Shown: positions 6,229 to 56,796 of the stretch, piece by piece
Position numbering within the stretch: the stretch's first letter is position 1
How the letters are laid out: every line of letters starts with the position of its first letter
From: a virus
Taxonomy: Duplodnaviria; Caudoviricetes
Reading direction: 5' to 3' (one strand)
IMG/VR virus record: IMGVR_UViG_3300022934_000023
Coordinates: 1-56,796 of that record
Length of the DNA: 56,796 nt
Position numbers and translations under genes: made by a program
The notes under the pieces: model-generated
What the model saw: the letters and a program-made list of their open reading frames with translations, nothing else
What the model was told of the DNA's origin: nothing
Databases searched by the model: none

Positions 6229-8543
6229 TGTCTGATGATGTACTGATTACCCCTGCCAGTCGCAAGATTGAGTTCAAGGACAATTCCGGTAATGTTGACG
6301 GTAAAATCGAGTTGGACGCCAATGGCAACTTGAACATCACTTCACCGGGCGGTGACATTGGTCTTGGTGACGCTACTGCTGACGTGTACATCGGTGACGG
6401 CACCAACAACGTAGACATCGTGTTCGAGCAGAACGGTGAGATTCGGGGGTTGACGGGCCGTACTCTGACGTTGGGTCAGTCAGACAGTAATGTGACCATT
6501 ACGGCCCAGAACTTCACAGCCAACGGCCTTTCCTATCCGACATCTGACGGTACTAACGGTCAAGTCCTCACAACAGACGGCTCTGGTGGTCTTTCGTTCT
6601 CCACGATTTCTAGCAGCGGCGCGTATGACTTGAACGGGGGTAGGCTGACCCTCGACGCGGACGGTGACACTTATCTAGAAGCGGCGAGTGACGACTACCT
6701 CACTTTCAGTTTCCTAAATAATCAGAAATACTTTATGAACCAATCGATGTTTGGTCCGGTAACAGGTGTAACCAATGCCCAGTTAGGTAGCTCTAGCCAG
6801 TCTTGGTCATTTGGTTGGCTTACTAACCTTTACAGCACGACCGTAAACGCTACGACGTACAATATTCAAACTGGTGGCAATCTTATATTCGAGGGTTCAA
6901 CCAGCGATAACTTTGAAACCACGCTAACAGTCGCCGACCCAACAGCCGACCGCACGATTACCCTGCCCAACGCAACCGGAACGGTCCTCCTGACTGACGG
7001 TGACGGAAGTAATCTTACAGGCATTGAAGGGTTCGCGGAAGATAGCACAACCAAAAACCTAAGTGCTGGTACAGGAGCAAACGATGGCTCTCTAGCCAGC
7101 GCGACCAGTGCGGTTTATAATATTGCGATTGGTCAGGACGCTAACGGCGGCGACACAAACTATTCCCAAAAAACTGTAGCAATCGGCTACGAGGCTCTGA
7201 AGGTAAACACAGATAACTATGAAACGGCAGTAGGTCACCAAGCCTTGCTGGCGCGTAGCAGCACCTACTTGTTTCCGTGTGCAGCTTTTGGAAATCGTGC
7301 GGGTAGCAGGGTAACCTCTGGTTCAGCGAATACCTACTTAGGTCCATACAACTACGGCTGTACAACCGGCGAATATAATACTGCCGTTGGCTCTTTCAAT
7401 CATCAGGTTATGACCTCTGGAGAAGGGAACGCAGCCGTTGGATATTTTGCCGGTGCAGACATAACTACAGGAGACAACAATGTCACAATAGGTTATTTGA
7501 CTGGTCAGAATCTTACTACCAGCGACGACAATATCCTAATAGGTCGTGAGGCAGGTGAGGCGCTTACTGGCTTTGGTCAAGACGACAATATTGCGATTGG
7601 TGCCCAAGCTCTGCATAGCTCCACAAGCTCACAAAACAGTGTTGCCGTCGGACGTTTGGCACTAGGCGGGCTTGCCCCCGGCGATCACAACACGGGCATA
7701 GGCGATGCGGCTGGAAGTAGTTTAAGTAGTAGTTCCTCTTACAATACGTTTGTAGGATCAAGTGCTGGAGCTGTAATCACTACAGGTGCAAAAAACACCA
7801 TACTCGGTGGCTACAACGGCAACGAGGGTGGCCTCGACATCCGCACATCCAGCAACCGCATTGTCCTCAGTGATGGTGATGGTAATCCTCGTTTGCAAAT
7901 CAACGGTCAGGGGGATATGAAGTACCCCGGAAGCAATGCTGAAAGCATATTCACCAGTGACCACAGTGGTTCAGCAAGTGCTACCAACCGTCGGGGCATG
8001 AACGCATCTGGCGACCAGCTTATTATTCACTCCGGCAGTGGCACTGCGGATATTGACGCCATTAAACTTTACACAAGTCACGGCGGCGCTGTTGGATCAT
8101 CTTTCGCAAAGCTGGCCTTCCTTGTGCAAAGCGACGGTGATGTACAAAACAAAAACAATTCTTACGGTCAAATTTCTGACCAGAGACTAAAGCAAGACAT
8201 CGTTGATGCCGCCTCTCAATGGGATGACATCAAGGCCCTACAGGTTAAAAAGTTCCGTTTCATAGATGCAGTAACTAATCTTGGTTCTGACAATGTGCCT
8301 TTGCAGATTGGCGTAATTGCACAAGACCTTGAAGCCGCTAACATGAGCGGCCTTGTTGTTGAAAAACAGGATGTGATTGATGGTGTAGATCAAGGCACTA
8401 CCACAAAATCAGTCAAATACAGCGTCCTCTACATGAAAGCAGTCAAAGCATTGCAAGAGGCAATGGAACGCATTGAAACACTGGAGGCACAGGTCACCGA
8501 CCTGACCGCTCGTGTCACCGCCCTTGAAGGCGCAACGGAGTGA
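6228..8543 (+). CDS. Tail fibre with peptidase S74-type intramolecular chaperone
   Basis: N(T/I)A(V/I)G beta-roll repeats; SDQRLKQDI autocleavage motif, IGVIAQDL, terminal coiled coil. Confidence 0.85.
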   Translation: MSDDVLITPASRKIEFKDNSGNVDGKIELDANGNLNITSPGGDIGLGDATADVYIGDGTNNVDIVFEQNGEIRGLTGRTLTLGQSDSNVTITAQNFTANGLSYPTSDGTNGQVLTTDGSGGLSFSTISSSGAYDLNGGRLTLDADGDTYLEAASDDYLTFSFLNNQKYFMNQSMFGPVTGVTNAQLGSSSQSWSFGWLTNLYSTTVNATTYNIQTGGNLIFEGSTSDNFETTLTVADPTADRTITLPNATGTVLLTDGDGSNLTGIEGFAEDSTTKNLSAGTGANDGSLASATSAVYNIAIGQDANGGDTNYSQKTVAIGYEALKVNTDNYETAVGHQALLARSSTYLFPCAAFGNRAGSRVTSGSANTYLGPYNYGCTTGEYNTAVGSFNHQVMTSGEGNAAVGYFAGADITTGDNNVTIGYLTGQNLTTSDDNILIGREAGEALTGFGQDDNIAIGAQALHSSTSSQNSVAVGRLALGGLAPGDHNTGIGDAAGSSLSSSSSYNTFVGSSAGAVITTGAKNTILGGYNGNEGGLDIRTSSNRIVLSDGDGNPRLQINGQGDMKYPGSNAESIFTSDHSGSASATNRRGMNASGDQLIIHSGSGTADIDAIKLYTSHGGAVGSSFAKLAFLVQSDGDVQNKNNSYGQISDQRLKQDIVDAASQWDDIKALQVKKFRFIDAVTNLGSDNVPLQIGVIAQDLEAANMSGLVVEKQDVIDGVDQGTTTKSVKYSVLYMKAVKALQEAMERIETLEAQVTDLTARVTALEGATE

Positions 8544-32303: not shown

Positions 32304-32332
32304 ATATTACAGATCAACTTCTTCCAAGTCAA
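32304..32332 (-). promoter_or_regulatory. sigma70-type promoter for SSB-like gene and downstream genes
   Basis: TTGACT-17 bp-TAATAT in the end of the polymerase gene. Confidence 0.65.
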
Positions 32333-33842
32333 GCCAGTTTTTTCCGATTTTTATTTCGATGCCAACTGGCATGTTGTAAGCAATGCCGTATCTGCGAATG
32401 GTTTCAAAGGGTAACGAGAGCATGGCATGTTTCATCATGTCTATGCAAATATTTTTTTCGTCCGGATGCACGTCCATCACGATGGAGTCGTGAACCGTGT
32501 TGCAAATCACGCTCTGGATTCCGGCAGAGTCAATGACCCGCTGCAGCGACACCAGAGCCAGAGGCAACAGGTCAGCCGTAGCAAAGCCTTGGACCGGATA
32601 GTTACAGATGGCGGTGCGGTTAGTTGCTGTACCCCACTCTGTCCACTTGCATCCGGGGAACATGTACTCCCGGCCCGATGGTAGGGTAACTTTCTTGTAG
32701 CGTACCGCATCGCGTTGCAACTTGTCATGCCACTCGGTCACGCCCTCGTACTTTTCCTTGAAGGCACGGTAGTACCGCTTCTGATCCTCTGTGCCAGTGG
32801 TGCCACCGTACAGCGGCTTGAATGTGTGGGCCTTAGCCTGTTGCCGTGTGCAGCCAATGACGCTGGCTGTGTAGCTGTGTACATCTGTGCCAGCCTTCAC
32901 GTCGGCGTAGACCTGACCGTCTTTTGCAAGAAAGCCAGCTACACGAAACTCTAGCTGCGAGTAATCCCCCTCCATGATGAGGCCACCCTCGAAGCGGCTC
33001 TCGACCACCTTCCGTATAGCGAAGGTATTTCCACGTGGCATATTCTGAAAGTTAGGATTGCGGCTCGAAAGGCGACCCGTCGCCGTAACACACTGCATGA
33101 ATTCTGGATGGATGAAGCCGTGGTCATCCACGTTGTTTTCCATGCCTTCAACAAAAGTGTTGATGTACGTCTTGAGGGCGTTGTATCGCGTGTATGCCGA
33201 AACAAATTCACGTGCGTCTCCCTGTAGTTCGTCTAGTCTTTCTTCCAGTGTAACCTTGTCTGCGCGGAAGCCAGCGGCAGCAGTGTCCCACGTGTTGCGT
33301 GGCACCAGCTTGAATCCCGCCACTTGCCCAGTAGGCACGTAAAGGACGCCAGAGCCGCCGCAGGGCTTACATACACGTACTGCCTTACCCGGGGTGCCAT
33401 CTTTGCGTAAGGCGCGTGTACGGCCCTCTCCGGAGCATTTGGGGCATTGCTGACCTTTTGTCTTGTATACGACATCCGTCATGCGGCGTACGGTGCCACG
33501 GAATTCCTTCTCTGACATGCGTACCCGCTGCTTGGGTTTCATGGTTGATCCACGCATCTCGTGACCGAGGTTGAACGTACGCGCCCACTCCTTCTTGTCG
33601 TGGACTTTACGTGAGTAAAGCAACACGCTGCGGTCGTCGGGGCTGGACAGGTTGATGGGCGTGTCACCCATCGCATCTCGTGCGAGTTGCATGAGTCGAG
33701 TCTCTAACTCTTGCATCTCTTCCTCGTACTGCTTGCGAATGTCTGCAAGCGTGTCGAGGTTGATCCGGAGTCCGTTACGCTCAATCTGCGAGAGCGTGTT
33801 GGTCATCTCCAGTGACAGTTTCAGTGTCGGTACGAGGCTCAT
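32307..33842 (-). CDS. polA: Family A DNA polymerase, polymerase part with DnaJ-type zinc finger
   Basis: TATGRLSS..PN.QN, DYSQLE.R, R..AK..TF..LYG, NYPVQG, VHDS; CPKCSGEG and CKPCGGSG. Confidence 0.93.
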   Translation of the reverse strand: MSLVPTLKLSLEMTNTLSQIERNGLRINLDTLADIRKQYEEEMQELETRLMQLARDAMGDTPINLSSPDDRSVLLYSRKVHDKKEWARTFNLGHEMRGSTMKPKQRVRMSEKEFRGTVRRMTDVVYKTKGQQCPKCSGEGRTRALRKDGTPGKAVRVCKPCGGSGVLYVPTGQVAGFKLVPRNTWDTAAAGFRADKVTLEERLDELQGDAREFVSAYTRYNALKTYINTFVEGMENNVDDHGFIHPEFMQCVTATGRLSSRNPNFQNMPRGNTFAIRKVVESRFEGGLIMEGDYSQLEFRVAGFLAKDGQVYADVKAGTDVHSYTASVIGCTRQQAKAHTFKPLYGGTTGTEDQKRYYRAFKEKYEGVTEWHDKLQRDAVRYKKVTLPSGREYMFPGCKWTEWGTATNRTAICNYPVQGFATADLLPLALVSLQRVIDSAGIQSVICNTVHDSIVMDVHPDEKNICIDMMKHAMLSLPFETIRRYGIAYNMPVGIEIKIGKNWLDLEEVDL

Positions 33843-34383
33843 TGAACATCTCCTCAAAGGTTACGCCATAGGCGTCTAGTTGTTTCAGTGCGATCTCTTC
33901 TGTGGCTAGTACGTCCGCACGACCGTACTCCTCAATTATCTCCCACGGTATATCGTAGAACGTCTTGCCGTCCTTGAGATACGGCTCCACAAGGTCTTTC
34001 TCCTTGCGGGTAACGTCATACTTTTCTGTAAGAGCAGCAAGTCCAAGAGGCCAACGCCTCGCTCGGGCCAGAATATATTCCGCAACCATCGTGTCATAGA
34101 TATGTCCCTCGTATGTAAAGCCGCACTCACGTATCCAAGTCAAGTCGAACTTGATGTTGTGGCCGACAAGTACGTCGGCGTAGTTCAGTGCGCGTTGGAA
34201 ATTGTCGAACGCATTTGGGCTAGGTGGCTCGGTTGAGTGATAGTAGCAGTCGTAGTCCACACCGCTGACTAGCCACTTGTAGCCGATAGAGACCAGCCGG
34301 TTGCCAAAGTATGGCAGGGGCGAGTAGCCGCCGCCACGCTTCTCCGTGTGGGTTGTCTCCACGTCAAACGTCAGTACGTTCAT
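33781..34383 (-). CDS. 3'-5' proofreading exonuclease domain as separate ORF
   Basis: ExoI DVET, ExoII HN.KFD, DTM, ExoIII Y...D. Confidence 0.88.
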   Translation of the reverse strand: MNVLTFDVETTHTEKRGGGYSPLPYFGNRLVSIGYKWLVSGVDYDCYYHSTEPPSPNAFDNFQRALNYADVLVGHNIKFDLTWIRECGFTYEGHIYDTMVAEYILARARRWPLGLAALTEKYDVTRKEKDLVEPYLKDGKTFYDIPWEIIEEYGRADVLATEEIALKQLDAYGVTFEEMFNEPRTDTETVTGDDQHALAD

Positions 34384-34681: not shown

Positions 34682-35901
34682 CAGTAATACACCCCCTTCT
34701 CTACGTCGATCTGTGCATTAATCATGCCGTGCCAACCATTCAGCTTATTCTTCGACACACAAACATGACGAACCGTGTTCTCTACCTCACTTGATCCAGT
34801 CTTGCCGATGCCGATGATGATGTCGGCCTCGCCAGCCTTACCAGTACGCGAGTTGTCCAGCATGGAGTAGTCAATAAATTGACGGTCGTGTGCGTCAAAG
34901 TTTGCCTGACTGACTGCCCAGACCAGCAGCTTGTTGCGCTTGGCAATCTCTCGTGCGTAGACGTAGGTCTCCTTGAGACGCTCGTCACCACGGTTGAACT
35001 CGCCCTTGATGCGGAACTTGTCTAGCTGATCCATGAACATGATGTCAGGCTTGTTCAGCTTGGCATACTCGTCAGCCTCTTCGACAGACGTACCCACCGA
35101 GTCCATGACTGTGAGGTAGGGTGCGATCTCGTCACGATACTTAGCCGCGAGGGTTGCACGACTCTCACGCATCTCCTGCTGGGTCAACTCAAAGTATGAC
35201 TGAATAATCCGCAGCTTGATGCGATCTGCTGGCTCCTCGTTGGCCCAGTACACAACCTTAAGTCCCTGCCGGATGTATGACGCAGCAAGGAAGCAGCAGA
35301 AAGTTGTCTTACCAACTTCCGGTCGAGCAAACAGAATGCCAAGATTACCCCGATCCAAGCCGGGAACTTCTTCCTGCAACAGACTGAATTCAAACGGAAA
35401 GTCAGGATCGCCGGTTACTTCGTCGAGCAGTTCTTCCAAGTCGGTGTCCACTTCTGTGTATGTAGTTTTGTCAGACATGCGTCCGTCATCGACGGCATCG
35501 ATCAGGCGTTGCAACTCCCCGAACTCTTCGCTTTCGCCTGTGAAGATTTCAATGGCCTTCTCACCGATCTGACGCGCACGGTCACGCAACCAAAAGTTAC
35601 GCACCATGTCGATGTGCATGTCCGTGTTGTCGGGGTTGCCAGCCTCAAGCGTGACGATGATGTCGTGTACCTTCTCACGCGCACTGTCGGGCATGGCAGG
35701 GTTGCGATCATCGAACAGCGCAGCCAACTCCGATGATGTCATCGTGTTGCCATACTTTGTGTGGCTGTAGATCAGGGTGTCAAAGATATCGCGCATCTCT
35801 CGCGTGAACATTTCACGGTCCAGCGTGTTCTTTACCTGAGAGAAAAACTCTGCATCCAAACAGAAGCCAAGTATCTTTGTGTCAAGCGATACGTTCGTCA
35901 A
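34681..35901 (-). CDS. SF4 (DnaB/T7 gp4-like) replicative helicase
   Basis: Walker A ARPEVGKT, MFMD, SQ, EAD..IGIG, KNK. Confidence 0.9.
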   Translation of the reverse strand: MTNVSLDTKILGFCLDAEFFSQVKNTLDREMFTREMRDIFDTLIYSHTKYGNTMTSSELAALFDDRNPAMPDSAREKVHDIIVTLEAGNPDNTDMHIDMVRNFWLRDRARQIGEKAIEIFTGESEEFGELQRLIDAVDDGRMSDKTTYTEVDTDLEELLDEVTGDPDFPFEFSLLQEEVPGLDRGNLGILFARPEVGKTTFCCFLAASYIRQGLKVVYWANEEPADRIKLRIIQSYFELTQQEMRESRATLAAKYRDEIAPYLTVMDSVGTSVEEADEYAKLNKPDIMFMDQLDKFRIKGEFNRGDERLKETYVYAREIAKRNKLLVWAVSQANFDAHDRQFIDYSMLDNSRTGKAGEADIIIGIGKTGSSEVENTVRHVCVSKNKLNGWHGMINAQIDVEKGVYY

Positions 35902-36691
35902 TGAATTCGTCCCTTTCGTCGTCCATCATGTTCTTCAAGTCGGTAGGCAGTACAGCCAAACTAGTTGGCACAAGAAAATGCAAACGACGAACAATGTCAA
36001 GTGCTTTGTCAGTCGCATCCTTGTCCAGTGCAACGTACACCCTGCTGTATTTCGATAGCCTATTAGCGTGTTCGTTGAGCAGGTTCGTACCCAGCAGAGC
36101 CATGCCTGTAACTTTATTGCTTACAGAACATGCACTCGCGCAATCTTCTACCACAAACGCAATGTCAGAGGTTCCGCAGACGAATGGCACTTGGGACTTA
36201 CCGTATCGATACCACTTAGGCTTAGTATCACGCAAGGCTCGTCCGACTGCATCAACTGTCTTTCGTCCATCTCGCACCATGTACACGACACGGTGCCGCT
36301 TGAAGTCGTACCGAATGTCAGCACGACCAGACAGATAAGAGTCATAGGCATTGACCTTTCTCACATACAGTTCTGCATCCGTGTTGCGTGACAGACTGAC
36401 GAACGTGGACGGCTCCTCAAAGCCAACACTCACAGCCGGTGCCGGTACAGATTTTGTCAGCTTATCTTTTGTCAACGCTTGACTGGCGAACTCTTTTGTC
36501 AGCTTGATACCGGTACGCCCACGCACGTTGCAGTCAGCATGAAAGCAGTACCAGAGGCGTTGCATACCATCGTCCGTTACGCTAAACGTGTTTGACTTAG
36601 CGCAGACAGGACAGTCTGCTCGGTAACTTGTCAGTGGTTGTATGTCAAGTGACTCAACGTACCCTGTCAGCCACGGCGGTGATTTTGTCAT
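35882..36691 (-). CDS. DNA primase (zinc-binding plus TOPRIM)
   Basis: CPVC...CFHADC, KW.RY, VVED..SA, LGT, ALD.DA. Confidence 0.88.
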   Translation of the reverse strand: MTKSPPWLTGYVESLDIQPLTSYRADCPVCAKSNTFSVTDDGMQRLWYCFHADCNVRGRTGIKLTKEFASQALTKDKLTKSVPAPAVSVGFEEPSTFVSLSRNTDAELYVRKVNAYDSYLSGRADIRYDFKRHRVVYMVRDGRKTVDAVGRALRDTKPKWYRYGKSQVPFVCGTSDIAFVVEDCASACSVSNKVTGMALLGTNLLNEHANRLSKYSRVYVALDKDATDKALDIVRRLHFLVPTSLAVLPTDLKNMMDDERDEFIDERIA

Positions 36692-36740
36692 CGCTTGTCC
36701 TTTTCGTGATTTTTGTCACCATAACCCATATCGATATCGC

Positions 36741-36769
36741 TTGACAAGCAGAATTTTGTCAGCCACTAT
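36741..36769 (+). promoter_or_regulatory. Putative early promoter overlapped by TGACAA-N8-TTGTCA inverted repeat
   Basis: TTGACA-17 bp-CACTAT at the divergence point. Confidence 0.5.
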
Positions 36770-36798
36770 CTATATACCCCCCCTTTAGGGAGACCCCC

Positions 36799-36951
36799 AT
36801 GAGGAAGAAGATAGATAAAATTAATCCGATAGCCAAAACCCTACGGGATAGTCTGTACAGAAAGAGAATTGTACAGGATAAACGAAAGGGTGAACAGGAT
36901 AAACGCGCGAAGAAGGAAATCAGGGATGCCAAGACCACCCAAGATTCGTGA
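36799..36951 (+). CDS. 50-aa basic ArfA-like peptide (not on ORF track)
   Basis: MRKKIDKINPIAKTLRDSLYRKRIVQDKRKG...; AGGGAG RBS. Confidence 0.6.
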   Translation: MRKKIDKINPIAKTLRDSLYRKRIVQDKRKGEQDKRAKKEIRDAKTTQDS

Positions 36952-37141
36952 AGACACGAAGACGTACAACCTGTTGATGCCGACAAGACAGTATGATATT
37001 TTGTCAGCCCATTCATCACGAATGACTGAGGCGGGTCTGGAACAGGTTGCTGTAGCTGACCTGATCCGCGAAGCAATCGACGTGTACATCGAAGCATTAG
37101 AGGATGAGGAGTACGAAGGTAATGTCAGCAAGGAAGATTAA
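36926..37141 (+). CDS. Ribbon-helix-helix DNA-binding protein
   Basis: KTYNLLM strand, helix, then VADLIREAIDVYI. Confidence 0.7.
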   Translation: MPRPPKIREDTKTYNLLMPTRQYDILSAHSSRMTEAGLEQVAVADLIREAIDVYIEALEDEEYEGNVSKED

Positions 37142-37397
37142 GGTATTCAAAGATCGCAAGGGCAACGACTTGATGCCCTACGTTTTGTCAAAGGATGGTA
37201 GGCACGAGGTTGTCGCCCCAGTGTCATCCGTGCGGATTGGAGAGACACGCAAAGATTTTGTCAAGTCAAAGGCTTGCGTGGACTACGCACGATGGGTTGC
37301 ACTCTTTGTCGGACGAAGTGAAGCCGAATGCAAAAAGTGGCTTGACAAGTATCAGCGGGTGGTGCTAAGACTGTGTACACCGTACGAAGTCAGGTAG
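37122..37397 (+). CDS. Hypothetical early protein
   Basis: MSARKIKVF...; overlaps upstream gene. Confidence 0.6.
   Translation: MSARKIKVFKDRKGNDLMPYVLSKDGRHEVVAPVSSVRIGETRKDFVKSKACVDYARWVALFVGRSEAECKKWLDKYQRVVLRLCTPYEVR
37342..37371 (+). promoter_or_regulatory. Putative promoter of candidate sRNA
   Basis: TTGACA-18 bp-TAAGAC with TG extension; predicted start near hairpin base 37378. Confidence 0.5.
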
Positions 37398-37491
37398 TCC
37401 TTTCCCGGCTCCGTACGGTGCCTCCTTTAGAATAGTGTGTTGTTCGAAAACTTGAGCAGGGCTGGTAGAGATACTGGCCCTGTTCTTTTTT
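37378..37491 (+). ncRNA. Candidate anti-Shine-Dalgarno sRNA
   Basis: Promoter, hairpin with GUCCUUU loop, unpaired CCUCCUUU, intrinsic terminator. Confidence 0.55.
37454..37491 (+). terminator. Rho-independent terminator
   Basis: GAGCAGGGCTGGTA-GAGA-TACTGGCCCTGTTC then T6. Confidence 0.85.
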
Positions 37492-37559
37492 GTTTGACAG
37501 GGTTGATCGTTATCTGTATGGGTAATGTATTGCAACGCCAACACAGAGGAGATTGGCAC

Positions 37560-37808
37560 ATGGAAATCACACTGACTGACAATCAACGCCGGGACTTTCT
37601 CCGGGCACACAACGAACTCCGCAATATCATTTCTACGATACAGGAGTGCAACGATCTTTGGGTATCCGACTTGGCAAAGCTGGAGCGGCTGCAACATCTG
37701 CTGCACTACACGCTCAAGTTTACACCGCCGGTTGACGACGAGGGCAACAGGATGTGGTATCGTGACTTTGTGTTTGAGGAAGAGGTGCCGAGCGATGCGG
37801 ACGATTGA
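37560..37808 (+). CDS. Hypothetical early protein
   Basis: GAGGAG RBS before ATG 37560; TTGACA at 37494. Confidence 0.7.
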   Translation: MEITLTDNQRRDFLRAHNELRNIISTIQECNDLWVSDLAKLERLQHLLHYTLKFTPPVDDEGNRMWYRDFVFEEEVPSDADD

Positions 37809-38139
37809 GAACCACGTCGAGTGGTGCCACTGCTGGCAATGCGGTGGCTACGGCAAAGTCGAGGGCGAGGAGGCAGTGCCGGACCCTATCCGGGGCGGTG
37901 ATCTTGTCAGCAAGGTGTATTACTGTACCAAGTGTCACGGTGGCGGTGAAGTGTATCGCGCCAAGCTAACACAGACAACAGTGATCCGTGCCTTCTTGAC
38001 ACAGGCAAAGAACGCTCTGGAAGACATCGACCTCATTGACAGCGACCTCGACTTGGCATATGGCAGGATTGATGACGTGATCGGTGACATTGAAAACTAC
38101 GAAAGAAAGGTAGGGACACGCGATGGGCAAAGTAAGTGA
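37795..38139 (+). CDS. DnaJ-type zinc-finger protein
   Basis: CWQCGGYG and CTKCHGGG. Confidence 0.7.
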   Translation: MRTIENHVEWCHCWQCGGYGKVEGEEAVPDPIRGGDLVSKVYYCTKCHGGGEVYRAKLTQTTVIRAFLTQAKNALEDIDLIDSDLDLAYGRIDDVIGDIENYERKVGTRDGQSK

Positions 38140-38293
38140 CTGGCTAATCGAAATGGAAGAGGACGCCTCGTACATGACGCGCCAACAATTCATGGACAAG
38201 CACGGCGAGACGGTGGCCGAGGTTTACGACGAACTGCAACTCAAGTGGCAGTACGATCACGCCGAACCGGGAGAGCCTGACGATGTGGGTTGA
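38123..38293 (+). CDS. 56-aa acidic early protein (not on ORF track)
   Basis: MGKVSDWLIEMEEDAS...; overlaps both neighbours. Confidence 0.65.
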   Translation: MGKVSDWLIEMEEDASYMTRQQFMDKHGETVAEVYDELQLKWQYDHAEPGEPDDVG

Positions 38294-38656: not shown

Positions 38657-38694
38657 TGCCGGACGTTTAGGACATACGAGAAGGACACAACGAC

Positions 38695-38949
38695 ATGAAA
38701 AAGCGAATACACATAAATCAGCACGTCATCCGGGCGAATGCCAAGAACGGCACAAACGACCCGGCAATCACTGTCAAAACATACCGTAACAATTATTACG
38801 CGCACCGGGTGGAAATCGACGGCGCGTCGTCTGTTGTTTACTCACCGGACAAACCGTTAAATTGTGGTGCGCGGGTATGGGTGGAAACTGACGAACCGGT
38901 AACGCTGCACGGCTTGGATAATGATAATTTTACACTGGTGATAGCATGA
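38695..38949 (+). CDS. Conserved phage hypothetical protein
   Basis: IH.NQH.I..N...PL.CGARVW.ET. Confidence 0.75.
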   Translation: MKKRIHINQHVIRANAKNGTNDPAITVKTYRNNYYAHRVEIDGASSVVYSPDKPLNCGARVWVETDEPVTLHGLDNDNFTLVIA

Positions 38950-39560
38950 AACAGGCTACGCTGATCGATCACGAAAAGATGATCTATAATATTTGCAGCG
39001 TCTATCGTGACGCCGACGAAACGCAACACGCGGAGGGCTTGTTGTGGTACGATAACGCACAAAAGGCGGCGCACGATATCGCGGTAAAATATGGCATCGC
39101 TGTTTACATTGTGGTGGCGGTGATCGCCGCGCTATCCCCAAATAACAAATGGTCTCGAAACGTGACAAACGCGGCGACGCTAATTGATGCTTTCCTGCGC
39201 GGCGACGGCATCGACTCGGTGAAAGTCTCGACCTACAACAAGATGAAGGCGAAGGCTTGGGACATCTTGGCGGCGCGTCCGGACTATGACGGCGCAAAAA
39301 AGATGCTCAAGGGCCAGAAGATCACGTCCTTTTTTATGGACATCATGGGCGAATTCAACGTCACCATTGATGGCCACGCGCGAAACATTGCCTACAATGA
39401 GCGGGTTGGATTGACCGACGACCGGACAAACATCGGCGTCCGTGAATACCGCGCTTTGCAAGCCGCTTACGAAGAGGCGGCGCGACGTGTTGGCCTCATG
39501 CCGTACCAGCTACAGGCGATCACTTGGCGCGTTTGGCGCGACCGGCACGGGATTACATGA
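38946..39560 (+). CDS. Early protein with possible HhH-glycosylase-like fold
   Basis: WY..A, ALSP...W..N, VTIDGHA, LQAITW. Confidence 0.6.
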   Translation: MKQATLIDHEKMIYNICSVYRDADETQHAEGLLWYDNAQKAAHDIAVKYGIAVYIVVAVIAALSPNNKWSRNVTNAATLIDAFLRGDGIDSVKVSTYNKMKAKAWDILAARPDYDGAKKMLKGQKITSFFMDIMGEFNVTIDGHARNIAYNERVGLTDDRTNIGVREYRALQAAYEEAARRVGLMPYQLQAITWRVWRDRHGIT

Positions 39561-39742
39561 GCGAAATTTTGTCAGCGCCATGCTTCACAAATATTGTCAG
39601 TGCCATGCTTCACTGTTTGGGGATCGGTTGGGGGTTTCCTGCGCCATTGTTCGGGGGCGGGACTGTCGGGCCGGTCGGATCGGCGGCGAGACGACGGGGC
39701 CAGCCGATCACCGACGCCAGCCAACTTTTTTTGGCTCAACTC

Positions 39743-39771
39743 TTCACAGGCTGCAAATCCTGTGCCATGAT
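39743..39771 (+). promoter_or_regulatory. sigma70-type promoter
   Basis: TTCACA-17 bp-CATGAT with TG extension. Confidence 0.55.
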
Positions 39772-39822
39772 TCACCCACCGGTCACGAGATGACCGGCAA
39801 CCAGCAACGAAAGGACATTATC

Positions 39823-40866
39823 ATGCTGGACATAATCGAACCTACCGCACGTTTTATCAGCCGGGGCGGCGGCACCTATGACCACACGCACACTGATCTG
39901 GCCGACGTGTCGATCTATTCGGACCTTGCCAAGATTCGGCGGGTGCCGATCGATGCTTTGACTAGCTGGGCCGACCGGACGCCTGACGGTGACGTGATCC
40001 GGGAGATTGTCGAGCCAACCCGGCTGGACGGTTTCTCGGCACTTGTTAACAAAGCGACCGGCGACCTGTTGCAGACCCGGCCTGTTGCCGACACCTACAA
40101 GCTAGTCAGCCATGACGAATTGTTCAGCCTACAGGCTAAAATGGTGGCGGAATCCGGCTTGCCGATCTCGAACCTTGAGATCATTGATCGGCTCTACGAT
40201 GGCGGACTCCGGGCGCACCGGACCATCATGTTCCATGACCTCGATGCTGTTGTTGGCAATTCTGACGACCGGGTTGTTTGCCGCATGGATGTTTTCAACT
40301 CTGTCGACATGTCTTGGTCATTCCAGATTTTTTCTGGTGCCTACCGTGACCTGTGCCGGAATACTTTGGTGTTCGGCGGCGAGAAGGCCTATCACCAGAA
40401 GCGCAAGCACACTAAGAACCTTAGCCCTGCCGCGCTTATCGGCAAGGCAACGATGGGGCTGGACTTCTGGCAGAACAACCGGGACGAAATGGACCGGATG
40501 CGCCAGACGCCACTGACCCGCGATCAATTCGGGTTGATCCTTGCGAATACGATCTGCGCCAAGCCGGGAGCGCCTAAGATTGAGGGCGTGTCGATCCCGG
40601 TCAACGAGCGGTTGCTTGGCTATCTGTTGCACCGGTACGACGAAGAGGTGGCAGAACTGGGCCGGACTCAATGGGCGGCCTATAACGCACTGACCCACTG
40701 GTCAACGCACACTGACACCGAATGGACCACCGACGAGGGGAAGACGTACAAGACCGGCAAGAAGGACGCCCGGACGCACCTTGTGCAACGCAAGCGATCC
40801 GACGATGTCCGGACCGTGCTGGATTCCCTTGTCTGGCAAGCTATGGGAGAGCCAGCTTTTGCATGA
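39823..40866 (+). CDS. DUF932-like protein
   Basis: Y.LV.H, NS.D.S, R..C.N, KHT, W.AYNALT.W.TH; GAAAGGAC RBS. Confidence 0.7.
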   Translation: MLDIIEPTARFISRGGGTYDHTHTDLADVSIYSDLAKIRRVPIDALTSWADRTPDGDVIREIVEPTRLDGFSALVNKATGDLLQTRPVADTYKLVSHDELFSLQAKMVAESGLPISNLEIIDRLYDGGLRAHRTIMFHDLDAVVGNSDDRVVCRMDVFNSVDMSWSFQIFSGAYRDLCRNTLVFGGEKAYHQKRKHTKNLSPAALIGKATMGLDFWQNNRDEMDRMRQTPLTRDQFGLILANTICAKPGAPKIEGVSIPVNERLLGYLLHRYDEEVAELGRTQWAAYNALTHWSTHTDTEWTTDEGKTYKTGKKDARTHLVQRKRSDDVRTVLDSLVWQAMGEPAFA

Positions 40867-40936
40867 CTTGATTGCATCACTATTCCGGCTTTGCTGGATA
40901 ATCCTGCTGGTGATTATCATTGCCAGCGTCATCTAA
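40859..40936 (+). CDS. 25-aa hydrophobic peptide (not on ORF track)
   Basis: TTG after GGGAG; MHDLIASLFRLCWIILLVIIIASVI. Confidence 0.45.
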   Translation: MHDLIASLFRLCWIILLVIIIASVI

Positions 40937-40952
40937 ACGAAAGGACAAAACG

Positions 40953-41432
40953 ATGACAACGAACAACACAACGACCACAACATTCCCGCCTCACCTGATC
41001 GAAGGCTTTAAGAAGCTGGCCGACGATTTCGAGGCACACATCCGGGCCGACGAGCGGTCACGCATTGCCGCCAAGTTTCGGGCTGAATTCCCCGAGAGGC
41101 CAGTTGCCAAGCCGGGGTTGTTCCCGATCACCGGCTTGCATGGTGAGCCGCTTAACGAAGTCGGCCAGCAGTCGAAGACCTACGACCCGGCGGCACCGTT
41201 TGATTATGCCGGACAGCGTCTGAATGAGAGCCACAGGCGCATGATTGCTTGGCTTTCATCCGGTACGTTTTTTGCGGTTCCGACACTGGCGGGGCATCTC
41301 AACGTCAAGAAGCAGACCGTCTATCAGTATCTGGACGCGATCAAGAGGGCTGGTTACAAGTTGGAAATCCGTAGCACCGGGAACAACAAGGGCGGCTATC
41401 GCAACATTTACCGGCTTGCCAAGACCGGCTAG
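40953..41432 (+). CDS. Winged helix-turn-helix protein
   Basis: LAGHLNVKKQTVYQYL..I...GY plus wing ending YRL. Confidence 0.75.
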   Translation: MTTNNTTTTTFPPHLIEGFKKLADDFEAHIRADERSRIAAKFRAEFPERPVAKPGLFPITGLHGEPLNEVGQQSKTYDPAAPFDYAGQRLNESHRRMIAWLSSGTFFAVPTLAGHLNVKKQTVYQYLDAIKRAGYKLEIRSTGNNKGGYRNIYRLAKTG

Positions 41433-41495
41433 TTTTGCAACAACATGGGGGCGGGGCGCGGTTGCCCCGTCTCAACCACACGAAAGGACGAAACG

Positions 41496-41717
41496 ATGAA
41501 AACATCTATCAAAAGCGAACTGACCACCTCTGAAGCTAAAGAGGTTTTTGCGATCACCGAGCGGGAAATCCGCACGATCCGCATAATGATCACCGGCATT
41601 GAAAATCAGATATCGGCCCTCGATGAATTCATGGATGCGATCGGGTTGCAAAAATGGATGGGCAGCAGCCCGCGTTCCGTTGCCGCGTGTGACTTCAAGA
41701 TCACGAAAGACGATTGA
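41496..41717 (+). CDS. Hypothetical early protein
   Basis: GAAAGGAC RBS; terminator follows. Confidence 0.7.
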   Translation: MKTSIKSELTTSEAKEVFAITEREIRTIRIMITGIENQISALDEFMDAIGLQKWMGSSPRSVAACDFKITKDD

Positions 41718-43868: not shown

Positions 43869-45528
43869 ACCTAAAAAAGACCCCAATGCGCCAAAGGCCA
43901 CATATAACCTCTCTACGAGGGAACGTGCGCGACGTGCGGCGACGAAACGTGTTAATGCCGCGAAACGTCGTGCAGTCAAGTCAAGCAAAGCCGCAGAGGA
44001 CAAACGACGCTATGCCCGAAAGCTGGAACAAACTACAACAAAGGTTGAAAAGGCTCTGGTTGGCAACGAGTCTGCCACAATCGATCTTGGGGATTTGGAT
44101 GTACTGCCAGATGCAGTCAGTGACCTTGTTAGCGAAAGCGAGATTGTCTTTCAGCCGAATGATGGCCCTCAGACAGACTTTCTCAGTGCGGGTGAGCGAG
44201 ACGTACTTTACGGCGGTGCTGCCGGTGGTGGAAAGAGCTTTGCACTTCTTGCTGATCCGCTACGTTACTGCCACAATCCTAATCATCGTGGTCTTCTTCT
44301 CCGTCGTACACTGGATGAACTCACCGAACTAATCGACAAGTCACGTCAACTGTACCCCAAAGCCTTTCCGGGTGCAAAGTTCCGGGAGTCAAAAACCACG
44401 TGGGTGTTTCCATCCGGAGCAACAATATGGTTTACGTACCTTGACAGAGATAAGGACGTAACCCGCTTTCAGGGTCAGGCGTTCAACTGGATAGGTATCG
44501 ATGAGATAACGCAATACCCCACACCGTACGTTTGGGATTACCTTCGTTCTCGTCTTCGCTCAACAGACCCTGAACTCCAACAACACCTCTATATGCGTTG
44601 CACAGCGAACCCCGGAGGCATTGGGGGCTGGTGGGTCAAAAAAACGTACATTGACGGCCTAGAACCCAACAAAGCCTTTCCCGCATTTGACATCGAGACA
44701 CAAAAGCCCTTTGTGTGGCCAGCAGGTCACGAGAAGGCAGGTCAACCGCTGTTCCTTCGCAAGTTTGTACCGGCGCGGCTGACCGACAATCCCTACCTGA
44801 TGGCAGACGGTCAGTACGAGGCGATGCTCAGGTCGCTCCCAGAAGTCGAGCGAAAGCGGCTTCTCGAAGGGGATTGGGATGTGGCGGAGGGAGCAGCCTT
44901 CCCAGAATTTTCAAGGAGTCGGCACGTTGTCGAACATTTCGAGTTACCTACCAATTGGCCCCGTATACGAGCGGCAGACTACGGCTATGCGAGTCCGTCG
45001 TGCGTTCTGTGGGGGGCTATTGACTGGGATAACAATATCTGGGTTTATCGCGAACTATATGCTAAACACTTGACAGCGGAAGAGTTAGCTGATAAAATAA
45101 TGGAAGCAGAACAACTCGACCCAACACCGCACTACACCGTGTTGGATTCGTCGTGTTGGAACAAGACAGGATTCGGTCCGTCGATTGCCGAAACAATGAT
45201 GAGAGCCGGAGTCCGCTGGACACCTTCTGATCGTAATCGCATACAGGGCAAGATGGAAGTTCATCGCCGTCTTGCTAATGATCCCTACACAGAAGAACCT
45301 CGATTACGTATCTTCTCCAGTTGCCAAAACATAATTAAGCAACTGGCTGGCATTCCGCTTTCTAAGTCCAACAGTGAAGATGTAGATACTAAGGCAGAGG
45401 ATCACGCATACGACGCTCTGCGATACATGGTAATGACACGCATGAGCGGATACACATCAATACACAAACAACTTGGTGCAATTAAGAGTCAGGTGTACCA
45501 AGTCCAAGATGAGACGTTCGGATACTGA
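43828..45528 (+). CDS. terL: Terminase large subunit
   Basis: YGGAAGGGKS, IGIDE, TANPGG, DYG, DH.YDALRY. Confidence 0.95.
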   Translation: MDDQQQSAPKKRGRPKKDPNAPKATYNLSTRERARRAATKRVNAAKRRAVKSSKAAEDKRRYARKLEQTTTKVEKALVGNESATIDLGDLDVLPDAVSDLVSESEIVFQPNDGPQTDFLSAGERDVLYGGAAGGGKSFALLADPLRYCHNPNHRGLLLRRTLDELTELIDKSRQLYPKAFPGAKFRESKTTWVFPSGATIWFTYLDRDKDVTRFQGQAFNWIGIDEITQYPTPYVWDYLRSRLRSTDPELQQHLYMRCTANPGGIGGWWVKKTYIDGLEPNKAFPAFDIETQKPFVWPAGHEKAGQPLFLRKFVPARLTDNPYLMADGQYEAMLRSLPEVERKRLLEGDWDVAEGAAFPEFSRSRHVVEHFELPTNWPRIRAADYGYASPSCVLWGAIDWDNNIWVYRELYAKHLTAEELADKIMEAEQLDPTPHYTVLDSSCWNKTGFGPSIAETMMRAGVRWTPSDRNRIQGKMEVHRRLANDPYTEEPRLRIFSSCQNIIKQLAGIPLSKSNSEDVDTKAEDHAYDALRYMVMTRMSGYTSIHKQLGAIKSQVYQVQDETFGY

Positions 45529-47462
45529 TGGCAAAAAAGACCGTAAAAGATTTATCTATTGAGATAGTAAAAAAGGCAGAGGCGGGTACTCTGACTATCG
45601 GTGAAGCACTGGATTACGTATCTAATCCTAGTGTCCCTATGCCTGAGTCGTACAAGTCAATTAACAAAGAAGGCGTCCACGTTGCCCGTGCCCAGATGAA
45701 TACGGTACGCAACAACATGAAGACGCTTAAAAAGCTGGCTCCTGATGACTTTCCTCTCGGACTAGACACGCCTCTCAAAGATATGCGGAATGCAGAAATC
45801 GTGTTTCTGTTCCGTCGTGATGGTTCTCCTGATCTTTCGAACCGAGCCTATAACTATCAAATCTTCGAAAACATTCTGTTTCACAACCTCGACAAGTATG
45901 GTCTTTCAGCCATCACTGAGGATGTGGGCGACGGCATTAAAGAGTCCATGTATCCGCGCCTTGCGGGTGCAGGTAATCCAATGGGTACGCAGCGTACAGG
46001 TCTTGCTGGCGAACGTCCTATGGAGGGACTGCTTGAGAAGGAAAAGCTGGATGCAATATACGCGGATGCTCTTCCTGAAGTCGAAGCAAAGTACAACGCT
46101 AATACACGCCGACTCGTAGAATACCATCGCAACACCTTCCAGCGTCCAGAACAACTAGTAGGTTTGAAGGTTACAGATGTCATCGTCGATGGCGACAACA
46201 TAACCGTCAAGGGCAAGAAGACAACCAAGACAGATCACAAGGGTCGTCCAGAGTTGACCTTTAAGGCAAGTAGCCCTATGGGCCGCTTGCTGACAGAAGC
46301 AAAGAATTCCAGCACCTCTGATCTTCTCTTTGATACTGACATCGACACGTTCAATGATGCGTTTAATGATACGGTCGGAAAACGACTTGCCGAATACAAA
46401 GATGTGCTTCCACAGGCGGACGTTAAAGTCACTCTGCCCAATGGTAAAGTAGAAATTCAGCAACGCGCAGTTACAACTCCGTCTGCTATTCGTTCGATTG
46501 TCCCACACTACCTGCATAAGCAACTCAAAGTCAACAAAGACGTTGTTCAGGGCTTGATGGGACACATCAATGCCGATACGATTGACCGTAACTATATTGG
46601 CATCTCAGCAAATAAAGACCTCCCTCTGGTTCTGGAAAATCCTGAAAACTTTGCCCAGAGTGGATTCGGTGGCGGAACTAACGCCCAGCATTTTGATCGC
46701 AGTCTTCTCAGTGAAGAACAGCTTGAGTTAATTGCAGGCGAACTTACTGAAGCCGAGACACAAGAGGCAAAGGCACGTACTGCTGTTGCTGTTCGTGTAC
46801 AGGCAACAGAAGCTCTTCAAACACAAAAAGCGGTTATAGAACGTGCTGCACAGATGCCAGAAGAAATTGCTGCTGCAACCACTGTCGCAGAAGGCGAAGC
46901 GCAAATAGCGCAAGTGCAGTCTGAGGCTCGTTCTAGCGCACGAAAAGAGTCTGCTGCAAACAGAGGTAAAGCTCACCGCAACGCATTGCGCGAAATGCTA
47001 GACCCACGTAATCTCAAGTCTTCGGCGCTGGCTGGGCTGGCTACTGCAGGTACTCTGCTGTCAAAGGCACCCAATCCCGTGTTTGATTTAGTAGGCGGTC
47101 TTGTAGATAAAGAGAGCTACGACATCGCAGAACAAAAGGGTCGTACCTTTGTGTCCGAGTTGACAGGTCAGCCGGAAGATAGCTTTCTGTCACGAATAGG
47201 CGGGGGAGCAGGCGTAGTAGGTGAGATGCTTACCGGTGCTGTTGCTGACCCCGAGGGTGCAGCCCGTACAAGCGCCCAGATGATGTCGCTGCTGGGCAAG
47301 ACCCCGATTCTTAATTTGACGAGGGGCATTCCTGATGCGGCCCCGCCACAGACAGGTACACTTGAGGCAGAAGACGCTGCGTCTAATGTCCAAGACGTAG
47401 AAAACCGCGCACGTAGCGGTCAAACCACGTCCCTGCTGGACGTACAACCACAAACTTTATAG
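45528..47462 (+). CDS. Tyrosine recombinase domain protein with long extensions
   Basis: T.QRPEQL..L...D, K-rich hairpin, SAIRS, LMGH, RNY. Confidence 0.75.
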   Translation: MAKKTVKDLSIEIVKKAEAGTLTIGEALDYVSNPSVPMPESYKSINKEGVHVARAQMNTVRNNMKTLKKLAPDDFPLGLDTPLKDMRNAEIVFLFRRDGSPDLSNRAYNYQIFENILFHNLDKYGLSAITEDVGDGIKESMYPRLAGAGNPMGTQRTGLAGERPMEGLLEKEKLDAIYADALPEVEAKYNANTRRLVEYHRNTFQRPEQLVGLKVTDVIVDGDNITVKGKKTTKTDHKGRPELTFKASSPMGRLLTEAKNSSTSDLLFDTDIDTFNDAFNDTVGKRLAEYKDVLPQADVKVTLPNGKVEIQQRAVTTPSAIRSIVPHYLHKQLKVNKDVVQGLMGHINADTIDRNYIGISANKDLPLVLENPENFAQSGFGGGTNAQHFDRSLLSEEQLELIAGELTEAETQEAKARTAVAVRVQATEALQTQKAVIERAAQMPEEIAAATTVAEGEAQIAQVQSEARSSARKESAANRGKAHRNALREMLDPRNLKSSALAGLATAGTLLSKAPNPVFDLVGGLVDKESYDIAEQKGRTFVSELTGQPEDSFLSRIGGGAGVVGEMLTGAVADPEGAARTSAQMMSLLGKTPILNLTRGIPDAAPPQTGTLEAEDAASNVQDVENRARSGQTTSLLDVQPQTL

Positions 47463-55955: not shown

Positions 55956-56144
55956 ATGATGCACGTCTTTCTCCTGTTTGTTTTCTTGGGAACGGGAGAA
56001 GACAAGCGAAGAGTCAGCAACGACATGTATTTTCGCGACCTAAATGAATGCGTGTGGTACGCACAAAAACTCCACAAACAAGGAAACGAGGTTACGGCGT
56101 ACTGCCTACCCAAACTGGTCGATAAAGATACGAAGGTATACTGA
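55956..56144 (+). CDS. Small hypothetical protein
   Basis: F.....C..YA.......AYC.P pattern; in operon. Confidence 0.65.
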   Translation: MMHVFLLFVFLGTGEDKRRVSNDMYFRDLNECVWYAQKLHKQGNEVTAYCLPKLVDKDTKVY

Positions 56145-56145
56145 G

Positions 56146-56577
56146 ATGCTTGCTGAACTCGCTGCTGCCAACGCCGCCTTTGCTGTAATCAAAACTGCTG
56201 TTCAGAATGGAAAAGACATTGCTTCCGCAGGTCATGCTATTGCAGAGTTCGTTGGCGCGAAGGAAGCCTTACAGAAGAAATCCCAAAAAAAGGGCAATAG
56301 TTCGGACCTTGAAGAGTTTATGGCCCTCGAACAGATTCGAGAACAAGAAGAGCAACTCAAGACCATAATGATTTATGCGGGTCGTCCGGGTTTGTGGGGT
56401 GACTGGCAAAAGTTTCAAGCCAAAGCGCGGGTCGCCCGGAGAGAAGCGGAAGAGGCGGCAATTCGTAAGCGCAAGCAGATGCTCGACATCGCCATTGTTA
56501 CCTTCTTCTTTGTCTTGGGTTTGGTTATTTTGGGCTGTATCGTTGCCCTCGCTCTCCACTCACAGGGACGCCTCTAG
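56146..56577 (+). CDS. Variant copy of 136-567 protein
   Basis: Same length, highly similar protein. Confidence 0.8.
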   Translation: MLAELAAANAAFAVIKTAVQNGKDIASAGHAIAEFVGAKEALQKKSQKKGNSSDLEEFMALEQIREQEEQLKTIMIYAGRPGLWGDWQKFQAKARVARREAEEAAIRKRKQMLDIAIVTFFFVLGLVILGCIVALALHSQGRL

Positions 56578-56636
56578 TTTTTTTCTTGTAAACTCTGGGT
56601 AACTGTGCTATAATAGGGTTATTTACGGAGAGTTGC

Positions 56637-56796
56637 ATGGACCGCATGGTAATCGAAGCCCTAAAACACAAGTACGAAGCCCAAAAGGCAAGTGTGCTAG
56701 AAACATTCAAAACCTCCGACATTATGGAGGACATCGACGACGCACTGAACACGTGGCACAAAGCAGACCGTCAGTTGATGACCATAAACCATATAG
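56637..56796 (+). CDS. Variant copy of 627-848 protein, cut by window end
   Basis: MDRMVIEALKHKYE... Confidence 0.7.
   Translation, partial: MDRMVIEALKHKYEAQKASVLETFKTSDIMEDIDDALNTWHKADRQLMTINHI

Follow-up and report, generated by a model that had tools for sequence, protein, structure and literature searches.

A candidate small regulatory RNA gene of an uncultured phage whose pairing region varies together with the ribosome-binding sites of the phage's own genes

The window analyzed here is the whole stretch of an IMG/VR virus record, 56,796 bases in length, which derives from an uncultured phage and is classed as linear and approximately 75% complete. This study concerns the interval 37342-37491, for which a sequence-only reading had proposed a small RNA (sRNA) of approximately 115 nucleotides (nt) that turns off early genes by pairing with a shared ribosome-binding site (RBS). 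A small protein gene (37122-37397), not visible to that reading, overlaps the interval. Its last ~20 codons contain the predicted sRNA promoter and the 5' arm of a hairpin, so that the -35 element, the -10 element, and this arm all fall inside a real gene, and the loop of this hairpin contains the stop codon TAG of the gene. Together with two small genes in front of it (36799 and 36926), the gene at 37122 follows a promoter-like site at 36741-36746, which is divergent from the primase gene. The features of the interval and the candidate targets of the predicted RNA are compiled in Table 1.

Table 1. Features of the predicted small RNA gene, the overlapping protein gene, and the candidate target sites in the window
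Feature	Position	Strand	Basis or remark
Small conserved protein gene	37122..37397	+	91 amino acids from ATG 37122 (97 if ATG 37104); IMG/VR relatives, alignment
-35 hexamer TTGACA	37342..37347	+	Inside codons W-L-D-K
Extended -10 TG-c-TAAGAC	37363..37371	+	18-nt spacer from -35 to TAAGAC
Predicted small RNA, ~115 nt	37377..37491	+	Predicted from promoter geometry and terminator
5' stem-loop	37378..37420	+	Fold; contains stop codon of the protein gene (37395-37397)
Loop seed UAGUCCUUUCC	37395..37405	+	Unpaired in fold; complementary to GAAAGGAC at three starts
Single-stranded linker	37421..37453	+	Holds CCUCCUUU (37421-37428) and UGUGUUGUUCG (37436-37446)
Intrinsic terminator	37454..37491	+	14-pair stem 37454-37485, then T6; fold, terminator scan
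Next promoter-like site TTGACA, 17 nt, TATGGG	37494..37522	+	Heads the operon holding the candidate targets
AAGGAC, partial match	36697..36702	-	Ahead of primase start, ATG 36691 (-)
AAGGAC, partial match	38681..38686	+	Ahead of ATG 38695 (PHROG 8676)
GAAAGGAC	39809..39816	+	6 nt before ATG 39823, DUF932-family protein, 347 amino acids
GAAAGGAC	40939..40946	+	6 nt before ATG 40953, 159 amino acids
Linker complement, 11 nt	40960..40970	+	Codons 3-6 of the 40953 gene; pairs with 37436-37446
GAAAGGAC	41482..41489	+	6 nt before ATG 41496, 73 amino acids

The putative promoter was analyzed in relatives of the protein gene. IMG/VR held 31 relatives of the encoded protein at 64-95% amino acid identity; a profile scan raised the number to 162, and the best 80 of these were kept. 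The -35 string TGGCTTGAC was invariant in 55 of 55 distinct 3' ends of relatives. In a codon alignment of 60 distinct coding sequences, the codons covering the -35 element were free of synonymous change (Leu was CTT in 60/60 and Asp was GAC in 60/60), with other conserved amino acid columns at 0.5-1.0 of the maximal synonymous entropy. The codons of the extended -10 element were restricted as well: the Val codon that supplies TG was GTG in 46 of 48 cases, and the following Leu was encoded only by CTA (32) or TTA (12) among 44. The TGnTAAAnC pattern was kept in relatives despite amino acid changes, and in a distant clade, in which L-V-K replaces V-L-K, the DNA still read TGnTAAAAC. This pattern indicates selection at the nucleotide level at exactly the geometry of a promoter, i.e. 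-35 element, 18 nt, and extended -10 element. A sigma-70-type promoter thus appears to be embedded in the end of the gene. Judged from the spacing, transcription would start at 37377-37379, at the foot of the hairpin and 6-8 nt past the -10 element, in agreement with the start near 37378 that the sequence-only reading had derived from TTGACA at 37342 and TGcTAAGAC; both of these strings are present and frozen at synonymous sites.

The RNA downstream of this site folds into three parts. The arms CACCGTACG (37378-37386) and CGTACGGTG (37412-37420), together with inner pairs, form the 5' hairpin. Its apical loop comprises the 9 nt UAGUCCUUU (37395-37403), and the minimum-energy fold leaves 7 of the 8 nt of GUCCUUUC (37397-37404) without a partner. 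The minimum free energy of the 126-nt stretch was -48.3 kcal/mol (z = -4.1), and none of 200 shuffled sequences folded as well. Comparison of 20 relatives showed that the 12-pair 5' helix was paired in 92.5% of cells with 4 pairs changed on both sides and that the 14-pair terminator was paired in 98.9% with 5 pairs changed on both sides. Taken together, 96% of the cells of both helices were paired, compared with 38-52% for slid partners, and the covariation score of 0.340 (0.201 for shuffled alignments) was reached by none of 500 shuffles. Several one-sided changes in the helices resulted in G-U pairs, which are compatible only with an RNA of the + strand. Eight relatives from different clades had the same three-part fold, i.e. 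5' hairpin, open or weakly folded linker, and terminator, with the seed in the loop or in an unpaired stretch. The hairpin, the unpaired CCUCCUUU, the linker, and the strong terminator were all found where the sequence-only reading had placed them, and both helices covary. CCUCCUUU had also been considered as a possible second seed directed at host mRNAs. As a conserved seed it found no support: CCTCC occurs in only 2 of 47 distinct elements.

Rfam was searched as well. No family reached its gathering score anywhere in the window, and at E<=10 the interval 37300-37540 matched only the L20 leader (E = 0.79) and a miRNA model (E = 2). In several clades (L054 at 7255-7469, also L058, L073, L082, and L083; handles of this kind denote the loci of relatives), a conserved and strongly folding insert of ~85-110 nt is present in the loop of the first hairpin. 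The insert is followed by a second, non-coding seed hairpin in L054 and L082/L083, and by a linker containing the seed in L058 and L073. For the complete L054 element, the folding energy was -89.9 kcal/mol (z = -5.8), and Rfam gave no match. A mobile RNA module is one possible identity of the insert, a second regulatory RNA another.

In the window, the loop string GUCCUUUC is the complement of GAAAGGAC, the RBS of the genes behind 39809, 40939, and 41482, as had been noticed from the letters alone. GAAAGGAC occurs exactly three times on the + strand, each time exactly 6 nt upstream of an ATG that opens a reading frame. These three starts (39823, 40953, and 41496) have the common RBS cassette ACGAAAGGAC, 6 nt, ATG, and variants of the cassette precede the 38695 gene and the primase gene, where the partial match AAGGAC is indeed present. 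Judged from their position, the target genes are presumably early. The 11-nt linker complement within the 40953 gene is kept at the same place in the orthologue of L040, although chance also gives matches of such length in 57 kb, and a same-sense control reached 12-mers. In a longer form, the cassette is shared by five starts (38680-41500; 36691-36710 on the - strand) as (C)ACGA(A)AAGGAC, 6-9 nt, ATG. The three bases 5' of the cassette 8-mer have no complementarity to the RNA loop, and something besides RNA pairing may keep them. The leader after the terminator (37494-37560), AACGCCAACACAgAGGAGATTGGCACATG, is near-identical across many clades even with a different gene behind it; it contains CAACACA, a 7-nt complement to the linker motif UGUGUUG of the RNA.

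Whether the loop and the early RBS motifs change together in related genomes was the check that the sequence-only reading had called for. It was run, and seeds and downstream RBS motifs shift together across clades. In L040, as in the window, the seed GUCCUUUC pairs with GAAAGGAC at three starts. The seed AUGUCCUUUU of L079 pairs with AAAAGGACAU. In the main clade, the seed UAGCGGUUCCUUU pairs with AAAGGAACCGCUA in matches of 13, 11, and 10 nt at 3-4 starts per phage, and the orthologue of the 38695 gene carries a 13-nt match to the loop of that clade. Further pairs are CGGUUCCUUUCCU with AGGAAAGGAACCG (L065), AGUUCCUUU with AAAGGAACU (L053), UUUCUCCUAUG with CAUAGGAGAAA (L057), GGGUACGUUUCUCCU with AGGAGAAACG and AAACGUACCC (L060 and L062; also given as GUUUCUCCU with AGGAGAAAC), and CUUUCGUUGUUGUG, also given as CUUUCGUUGUUG, with ACAACAACGAAAG (L098 and L112). 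Over 8-13 nt, the unpaired loop or linker is thus the complement of sequences around the translation starts of its own phage's downstream genes, and many of these matches extend beyond the Shine-Dalgarno core. The seed resides in the loop in the phage of the window and in a single-stranded stretch just 3' of the hairpin in other clades.

For a quantitative evaluation, 79 loci were examined after L043 and L095, both truncated at the gene, had been dropped. A T-run followed by TTGAC was found at most 420 nt from the stop codon in 77 of the 79 loci, and TTGAC was used as the anchor; the call is doubtful for at least one of these loci (L074/L075). L077 and L100, which do not have the T-run and TTGAC (L100 has an N there), were excluded. 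The element was defined as the sequence from the stop codon to the terminator and was compared with the downstream + strand of the same locus. Forty-seven distinct elements were obtained. The permutation tests were confined to loci with 3 kb or more of downstream sequence, and 29 had this length together with a usable element. Average-linkage clustering at 75% element identity placed these 29 in 14 groups, each represented by one member. This grouping replaced an earlier one by shared 11-mers, which had given 6 groups and merged most clades.

Among the 14 representatives, the summed longest antisense match of an element to its own genome was 151, compared with 131.2 ± 3.8 for deranged pairs of element and genome. 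There were 49 own-genome matches of at least 9 nt (25.2 ± 4.2 after derangement) and 23 of at least 10 nt (8.2 ± 2.4). None of these three values was reached in 20,000 derangements. A complement-only control of equal composition and wrong polarity gave 128, 22, and 4, compared with 127.6, 23.3, and 6.6, and therefore no excess; the minus-strand control gave 127, 24, and 4. Twenty-six of the 49 own matches ended within -16 to +4 of an ATG or GTG opening at least 60 codons, where 9.2 were expected by position (p = 7e-8). For cross-clade matches the corresponding number was 108 of 328. Almost no comparable matches were found on either strand in the ~6.7 kb upstream of the element, the exception being 9 nt at the primase start of L040.

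The same result was obtained with a single orthologous gene. For the DUF932-family gene, 23 distinct pairs of RNA and start region gave a sum of 202, compared with 154.5 ± 6.9 after permutation, and the value was reached by none of 20,000 permutations; the element of L075, which had been shortened by the terminator pattern, was retained as a miss. The frequency of individual motifs at starts followed the seed as well. In the 3 loci whose seed is GUCCUU, AAGGAC occurred at 0.56 per kb, compared with 0.018 per kb in the other 27 loci; the corresponding values for seed-matched and other loci were 0.45 and 0.039 per kb for AAGGAACC and 0.36 and 0.023 per kb for AGGAGAAA. The association of motif and seed was 12- to 30-fold overall for these motif pairs, which were picked after the list of seeds and sites was known.

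Considering the promoter constraint, the covariation of both helices, and the joint change of seeds and RBS motifs, we conclude that the interval is probably a phage gene for a small regulatory RNA of ~115 nt that acts on the RBS of the phage's own genes. The sequence-only proposal is thereby supported in part, namely in its core, and not for its second motif, CCUCCUUU. The following course of events is proposed. The promoter (TTGACA, 18 nt, TGnTAAGAC), overprinted on the last ~20 codons of the protein gene, would start an RNA at about 37377-37379, which would fold at once into the 5' stem-loop and end at the terminator 37454-37491. The exposed loop, or the linker in other clades, would then pair with several genes of the adjacent operon at their Shine-Dalgarno regions. 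In the phage of the window, the targets would be the genes at 39823 (DUF932 family), 40953, and 41496; the matches at the 38695 gene and at primase are weaker. Because these genes have the common RBS cassette ACGAAAGGAC, one RNA could act on all of them. Pairing with the Shine-Dalgarno region would most likely block binding of the 30S subunit and lower translation of the targets.

A number of observations weigh against this interpretation. In the window, the perfect match is only 8 nt long, and 7 of these are ordinary Shine-Dalgarno sequence (GAAAGGA). The count of GAAAGGAC is unremarkable as well, with 4 copies on both strands compared with 1.95 expected and 13 of 100 shuffles reaching 4. The RBS match in this window alone is therefore weak evidence, and its weight comes from the comparison with relatives. 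When loop and linker were ranked naively by RNAduplex against 1,596 candidate starts of the window, the proposed targets did not stand out; the top ranks were occupied by GC-rich spurious starts. Within the comparative data, the motif pairs behind the 12- to 30-fold association were chosen after the fact, L062 keeps a start with GAAAGGAC although its RNA does not contain GUCCUUUC, and the DUF932-family gene has no specific match in L042 (5 nt) or in L066 and L069 (7 nt, generic Shine-Dalgarno). The excess of wobble pairs over A-C mismatches in near-matches, 81 to 53, is modest, comes from overlapping windows, and is weakly informative. In L039 the hairpin is reduced to a short remnant. The -10 element does not have T at hexamer position 6, and for this reason the site was not listed by a promoter scan that used the Escherichia coli consensus. 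Finally, contigs from RNA libraries covering 37143-37407 and 37169-37437 link the coding body to the hairpin, and such a contig from a relative (37137-37772) crosses the terminator. A longer mRNA would explain these contigs no less well than a separate small RNA. The material consists of contigs of 4 runs covering parts of 36614-37814; it carries no information on ends, strand, or level, its gaps are uninformative, and carry-over of DNA is possible.

The same RNA-RNA pairing could take place without a separate gene. Hairpin, seed, and terminator would then constitute the 3' untranslated region (3' UTR) of the three-gene operon and act within the mRNA or as a 3' fragment cut out by an RNase. 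The contigs that join coding body and hairpin are as expected for such a transcript, the terminator closes the three-gene operon anyway, the -10 element is poor by the E. coli consensus, and the L054-type insert of ~85-100 nt between the coding end and the second seed hairpin means that the distance to the promoter is not fixed. What a 3' UTR does not account for is the complete absence of synonymous change in TGGCTTGAC (60/60) and the retention of TGnTAAAnC across an amino acid swap, both of which need a function at the nucleotide level at exactly the spacing of a promoter. We therefore consider an action from the 3' UTR rather unlikely as a replacement for a separate sRNA gene; the two are compatible, and both transcripts could carry the seed. 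A DNA operator or a purely structural 3' end is less likely than the 3' UTR. If the 3' end were purely structural, hairpin and terminator would only form the end of the mRNA, serving stability, termination, or nut/boxA-like read-through, and the complementarity to the RBS would be a by-product of a pyrimidine-rich spacer. A small first gene followed by a hairpin, a CU-rich stretch, and a terminator is a layout like that of lambda cro-nutR-tR1, and the linker of the L044 clade contains CUCUUUA, which is boxA-like. The nut/boxA-like reading of the CU-rich linker was dropped, as the boxA-like string is confined to this one clade. Pyrimidine-rich RNA would indeed match any Shine-Dalgarno sequence, and 33% of the cross-clade matches also lie at starts. 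However, the matches reach 11-13 nt and extend into bases that are not part of the Shine-Dalgarno sequence, e.g. ACCGCUA and AAACGUACCC, and own pairs beat foreign pairs, which the composition-matched control does not. A by-product of this kind is accordingly improbable.

The cassette might also be read as DNA, by a phage DNA-binding protein that recognizes it in either orientation, at the starts and at the one inverted copy in the interval. The cassette is in fact a repeated, start-associated DNA motif, and Cluster K mycobacteriophages have such motifs together with a single inverted copy, the ligand being given as 'either RNA or protein' in the excerpted text of the respective article (PMC3203893). 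Against a protein ligand, the inverted copy is always found in the unpaired part of an RNA fold whose stem shows covariation with G-U pairs, every target copy is on the coding strand with a constant spacing to its start codon, and the near-matches favor G-U over A-C (81 compared with 53). Recognition at the DNA level is therefore very unlikely. Still less probability is assigned to mere chance, i.e. an ordinary terminator region whose loop happens to resemble an anti-Shine-Dalgarno sequence. The 8-mer count is unremarkable in the window alone and would agree with it; all comparative tests, i.e. derangement, covariation, position at starts, synonymous sites, control, and DUF932-family pairs, speak against it.

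The wider surroundings of the predicted sRNA gene were characterized by PHROG and Pfam scans. A replication module on the minus strand comprises primase (35882-36691), a DnaB-type helicase, DNA polymerase, a Cas4-like exonuclease, and ribonucleotide reductase. A block of small rightward genes begins at ~36.8 kb and is followed by terminase (43828), portal (47705), and structural genes. The nearest relatives of the helicase, at ~27-35% identity, are those of Roseobacter CRP, Pelagibacter HTVC033P, and HMO-2011 phages. A search of GenBank phage DNA with 36700-38200 returned no match. The protein encoded by 37122-37397 belongs to no Pfam or PHROG family; its AlphaFold2 (AF2) model (predicted local distance difference test, pLDDT, 79) gave no match in the PDB at E<=0.001, and the ESM Atlas gave no usable hit. 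A scan for this protein across 185,579 species genomes yielded 32 pattern hits, none of which was confirmed, and hence no clue to a host or prophage. The idea that the protein acts as an RNA chaperone for the sRNA found no support.

The two genes in front of it are likewise conserved in relatives. The product of 36799-36951 (+; 50 amino acids) is very basic and has a weak match to phrog_20887, a family of unassigned function (E = 2e-4); that of 36926-37141 (+; 71 amino acids) has no PHROG hit and resembles a ribbon-helix-helix protein by eye only. An open reading frame (ORF) of 644 amino acids (45528-47462, +) between the terminase and portal genes matches integrase PHROGs, but only weakly (E = 3e-5 and 1e-4), and its position would be odd for an integrase. 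The DNA polymerase (-) consists of two overlapping ORFs, both matching PHROG 17, with the exonuclease part at 33781-34383 and the polymerase part at 32307-33857; splitting of the gene, a frameshift, or faulty assembly may account for this arrangement (32307-34383). The ends of the record (1-760 and 56011-56770) form a direct repeat of ~760 bases with only 85.5% identity, and each holds an ORF of 177 amino acids (34-567 and 56044-56577). The repeat may have arisen by divergence of a terminal repeat or by the assembler joining two strain variants at a circular junction.

The closest analogue of the predicted RNA is the c4 RNA of phages P1 and P7, and membership in the C4, AbcR, and RsaE families is excluded by Rfam. 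Heteroimmunity of P1 and P7 involves a loop and a target that differ together between these relatives. The c4 RNA, which belongs to the immI operon, pairs through its loops at the RBS of the phage's own gene and blocks translation, as described in the excerpted text of a 2025 review (PMC12197685). Common to c4 and the predicted RNA are a phage origin, loops complementary to the RBS region of own genes, a location just upstream of the targets, and phage-specific pairing. The predicted RNA differs from c4 by having no C4 match in Rfam, by an apparent (predicted) promoter of its own within a protein gene, by a terminator between RNA and targets, and by addressing several genes via a common cassette. 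RNAs of the C4 family are processed from the transcript that also contains their targets; in the window, a terminator and a promoter-like site separate the predicted RNA from its candidate targets. In addition, the part of the genome seen gives no sign of lysogeny: no relatives occur in 185,579 species genomes, and elsewhere in the window there is only one weak integrase-family match.

Small RNAs from the 3' ends of genes with a promoter inside the upstream coding sequence are exemplified by MicL (in cutC) and DapZ (in dapB), which are Hfq-dependent host RNAs with single-stranded 5' seeds. The RNA predicted here would resemble them in its promoter within the upstream coding sequence, its terminator shared with the mRNA, and its seed directed in trans against RBS regions. 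In contrast, its seed lies mostly in a hairpin loop, and it is encoded by a phage and aimed at phage genes.

In the Cluster K mycobacteriophages, the start-associated sequence (SAS) is an asymmetric motif with a Shine-Dalgarno core located 3-7 bp before many non-structural gene starts; it occurs in one orientation plus a single opposite copy, and in the excerpted text of the article the authors left the ligand as RNA or protein (PMC3203893). The phages studied here likewise have a motif of one orientation directly before several starts, namely 3 starts plus variants in the window and 3-4 copies in each phage of the main clade. There is no relationship between the two cases in sequence, phage, or host, and here the inverted copy is the loop of a covarying hairpin, which provides a concrete candidate ligand. 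AbcR and RsaE also pair with the Shine-Dalgarno sequences of several mRNAs through exposed C/U-rich motifs; these are bacterial families without an Rfam match here, and the seed described above is phage-specific and longer than the Shine-Dalgarno core, so that the relation is one of analogy only. No description of the element was found in open-access papers and bioRxiv full text.

The joint change of loop and site across related phages points to an RNA switch on phage gene expression. At least 8 distinct seed/site states exist at one orthologous gene. We tentatively put forward the idea, to which we give a minor share of probability, that the pairs of seed and RBS cassette form a diversifying specificity code. 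The phages concerned, uncultured and of marine and salt-marsh origin, are apparently lytic, and the code would be their RNA-based counterpart of P1/P7 heteroimmunity. If this were true, the RNA of each lineage would silence start sites of its own type and no others; it would time the lineage's own early program and would exclude or tolerate co-infecting relatives according to their type. The same logic would explain the start-associated sequences of other phage groups.

Few phage RNAs are known to regulate genes of their own phage in trans, and c4 is essentially the only one listed as acting at ribosome-binding sites in the excerpted text of the 2025 review (PMC12197685). The uncultured phage family described here, with 162 relatives detected, would add the joint evolution of a compact RNA gene with an RBS cassette common to several genes. 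It may provide a natural series of compensatory variants for the rules of RNA-mRNA pairing, and it would illustrate how a promoter and an RNA hairpin can be written over the end of a coding sequence and be recognized from synonymous-site constraint alone. The predicted RNA would also be a candidate answer to the question of what purpose repeated start-associated motifs serve in phage genomes.

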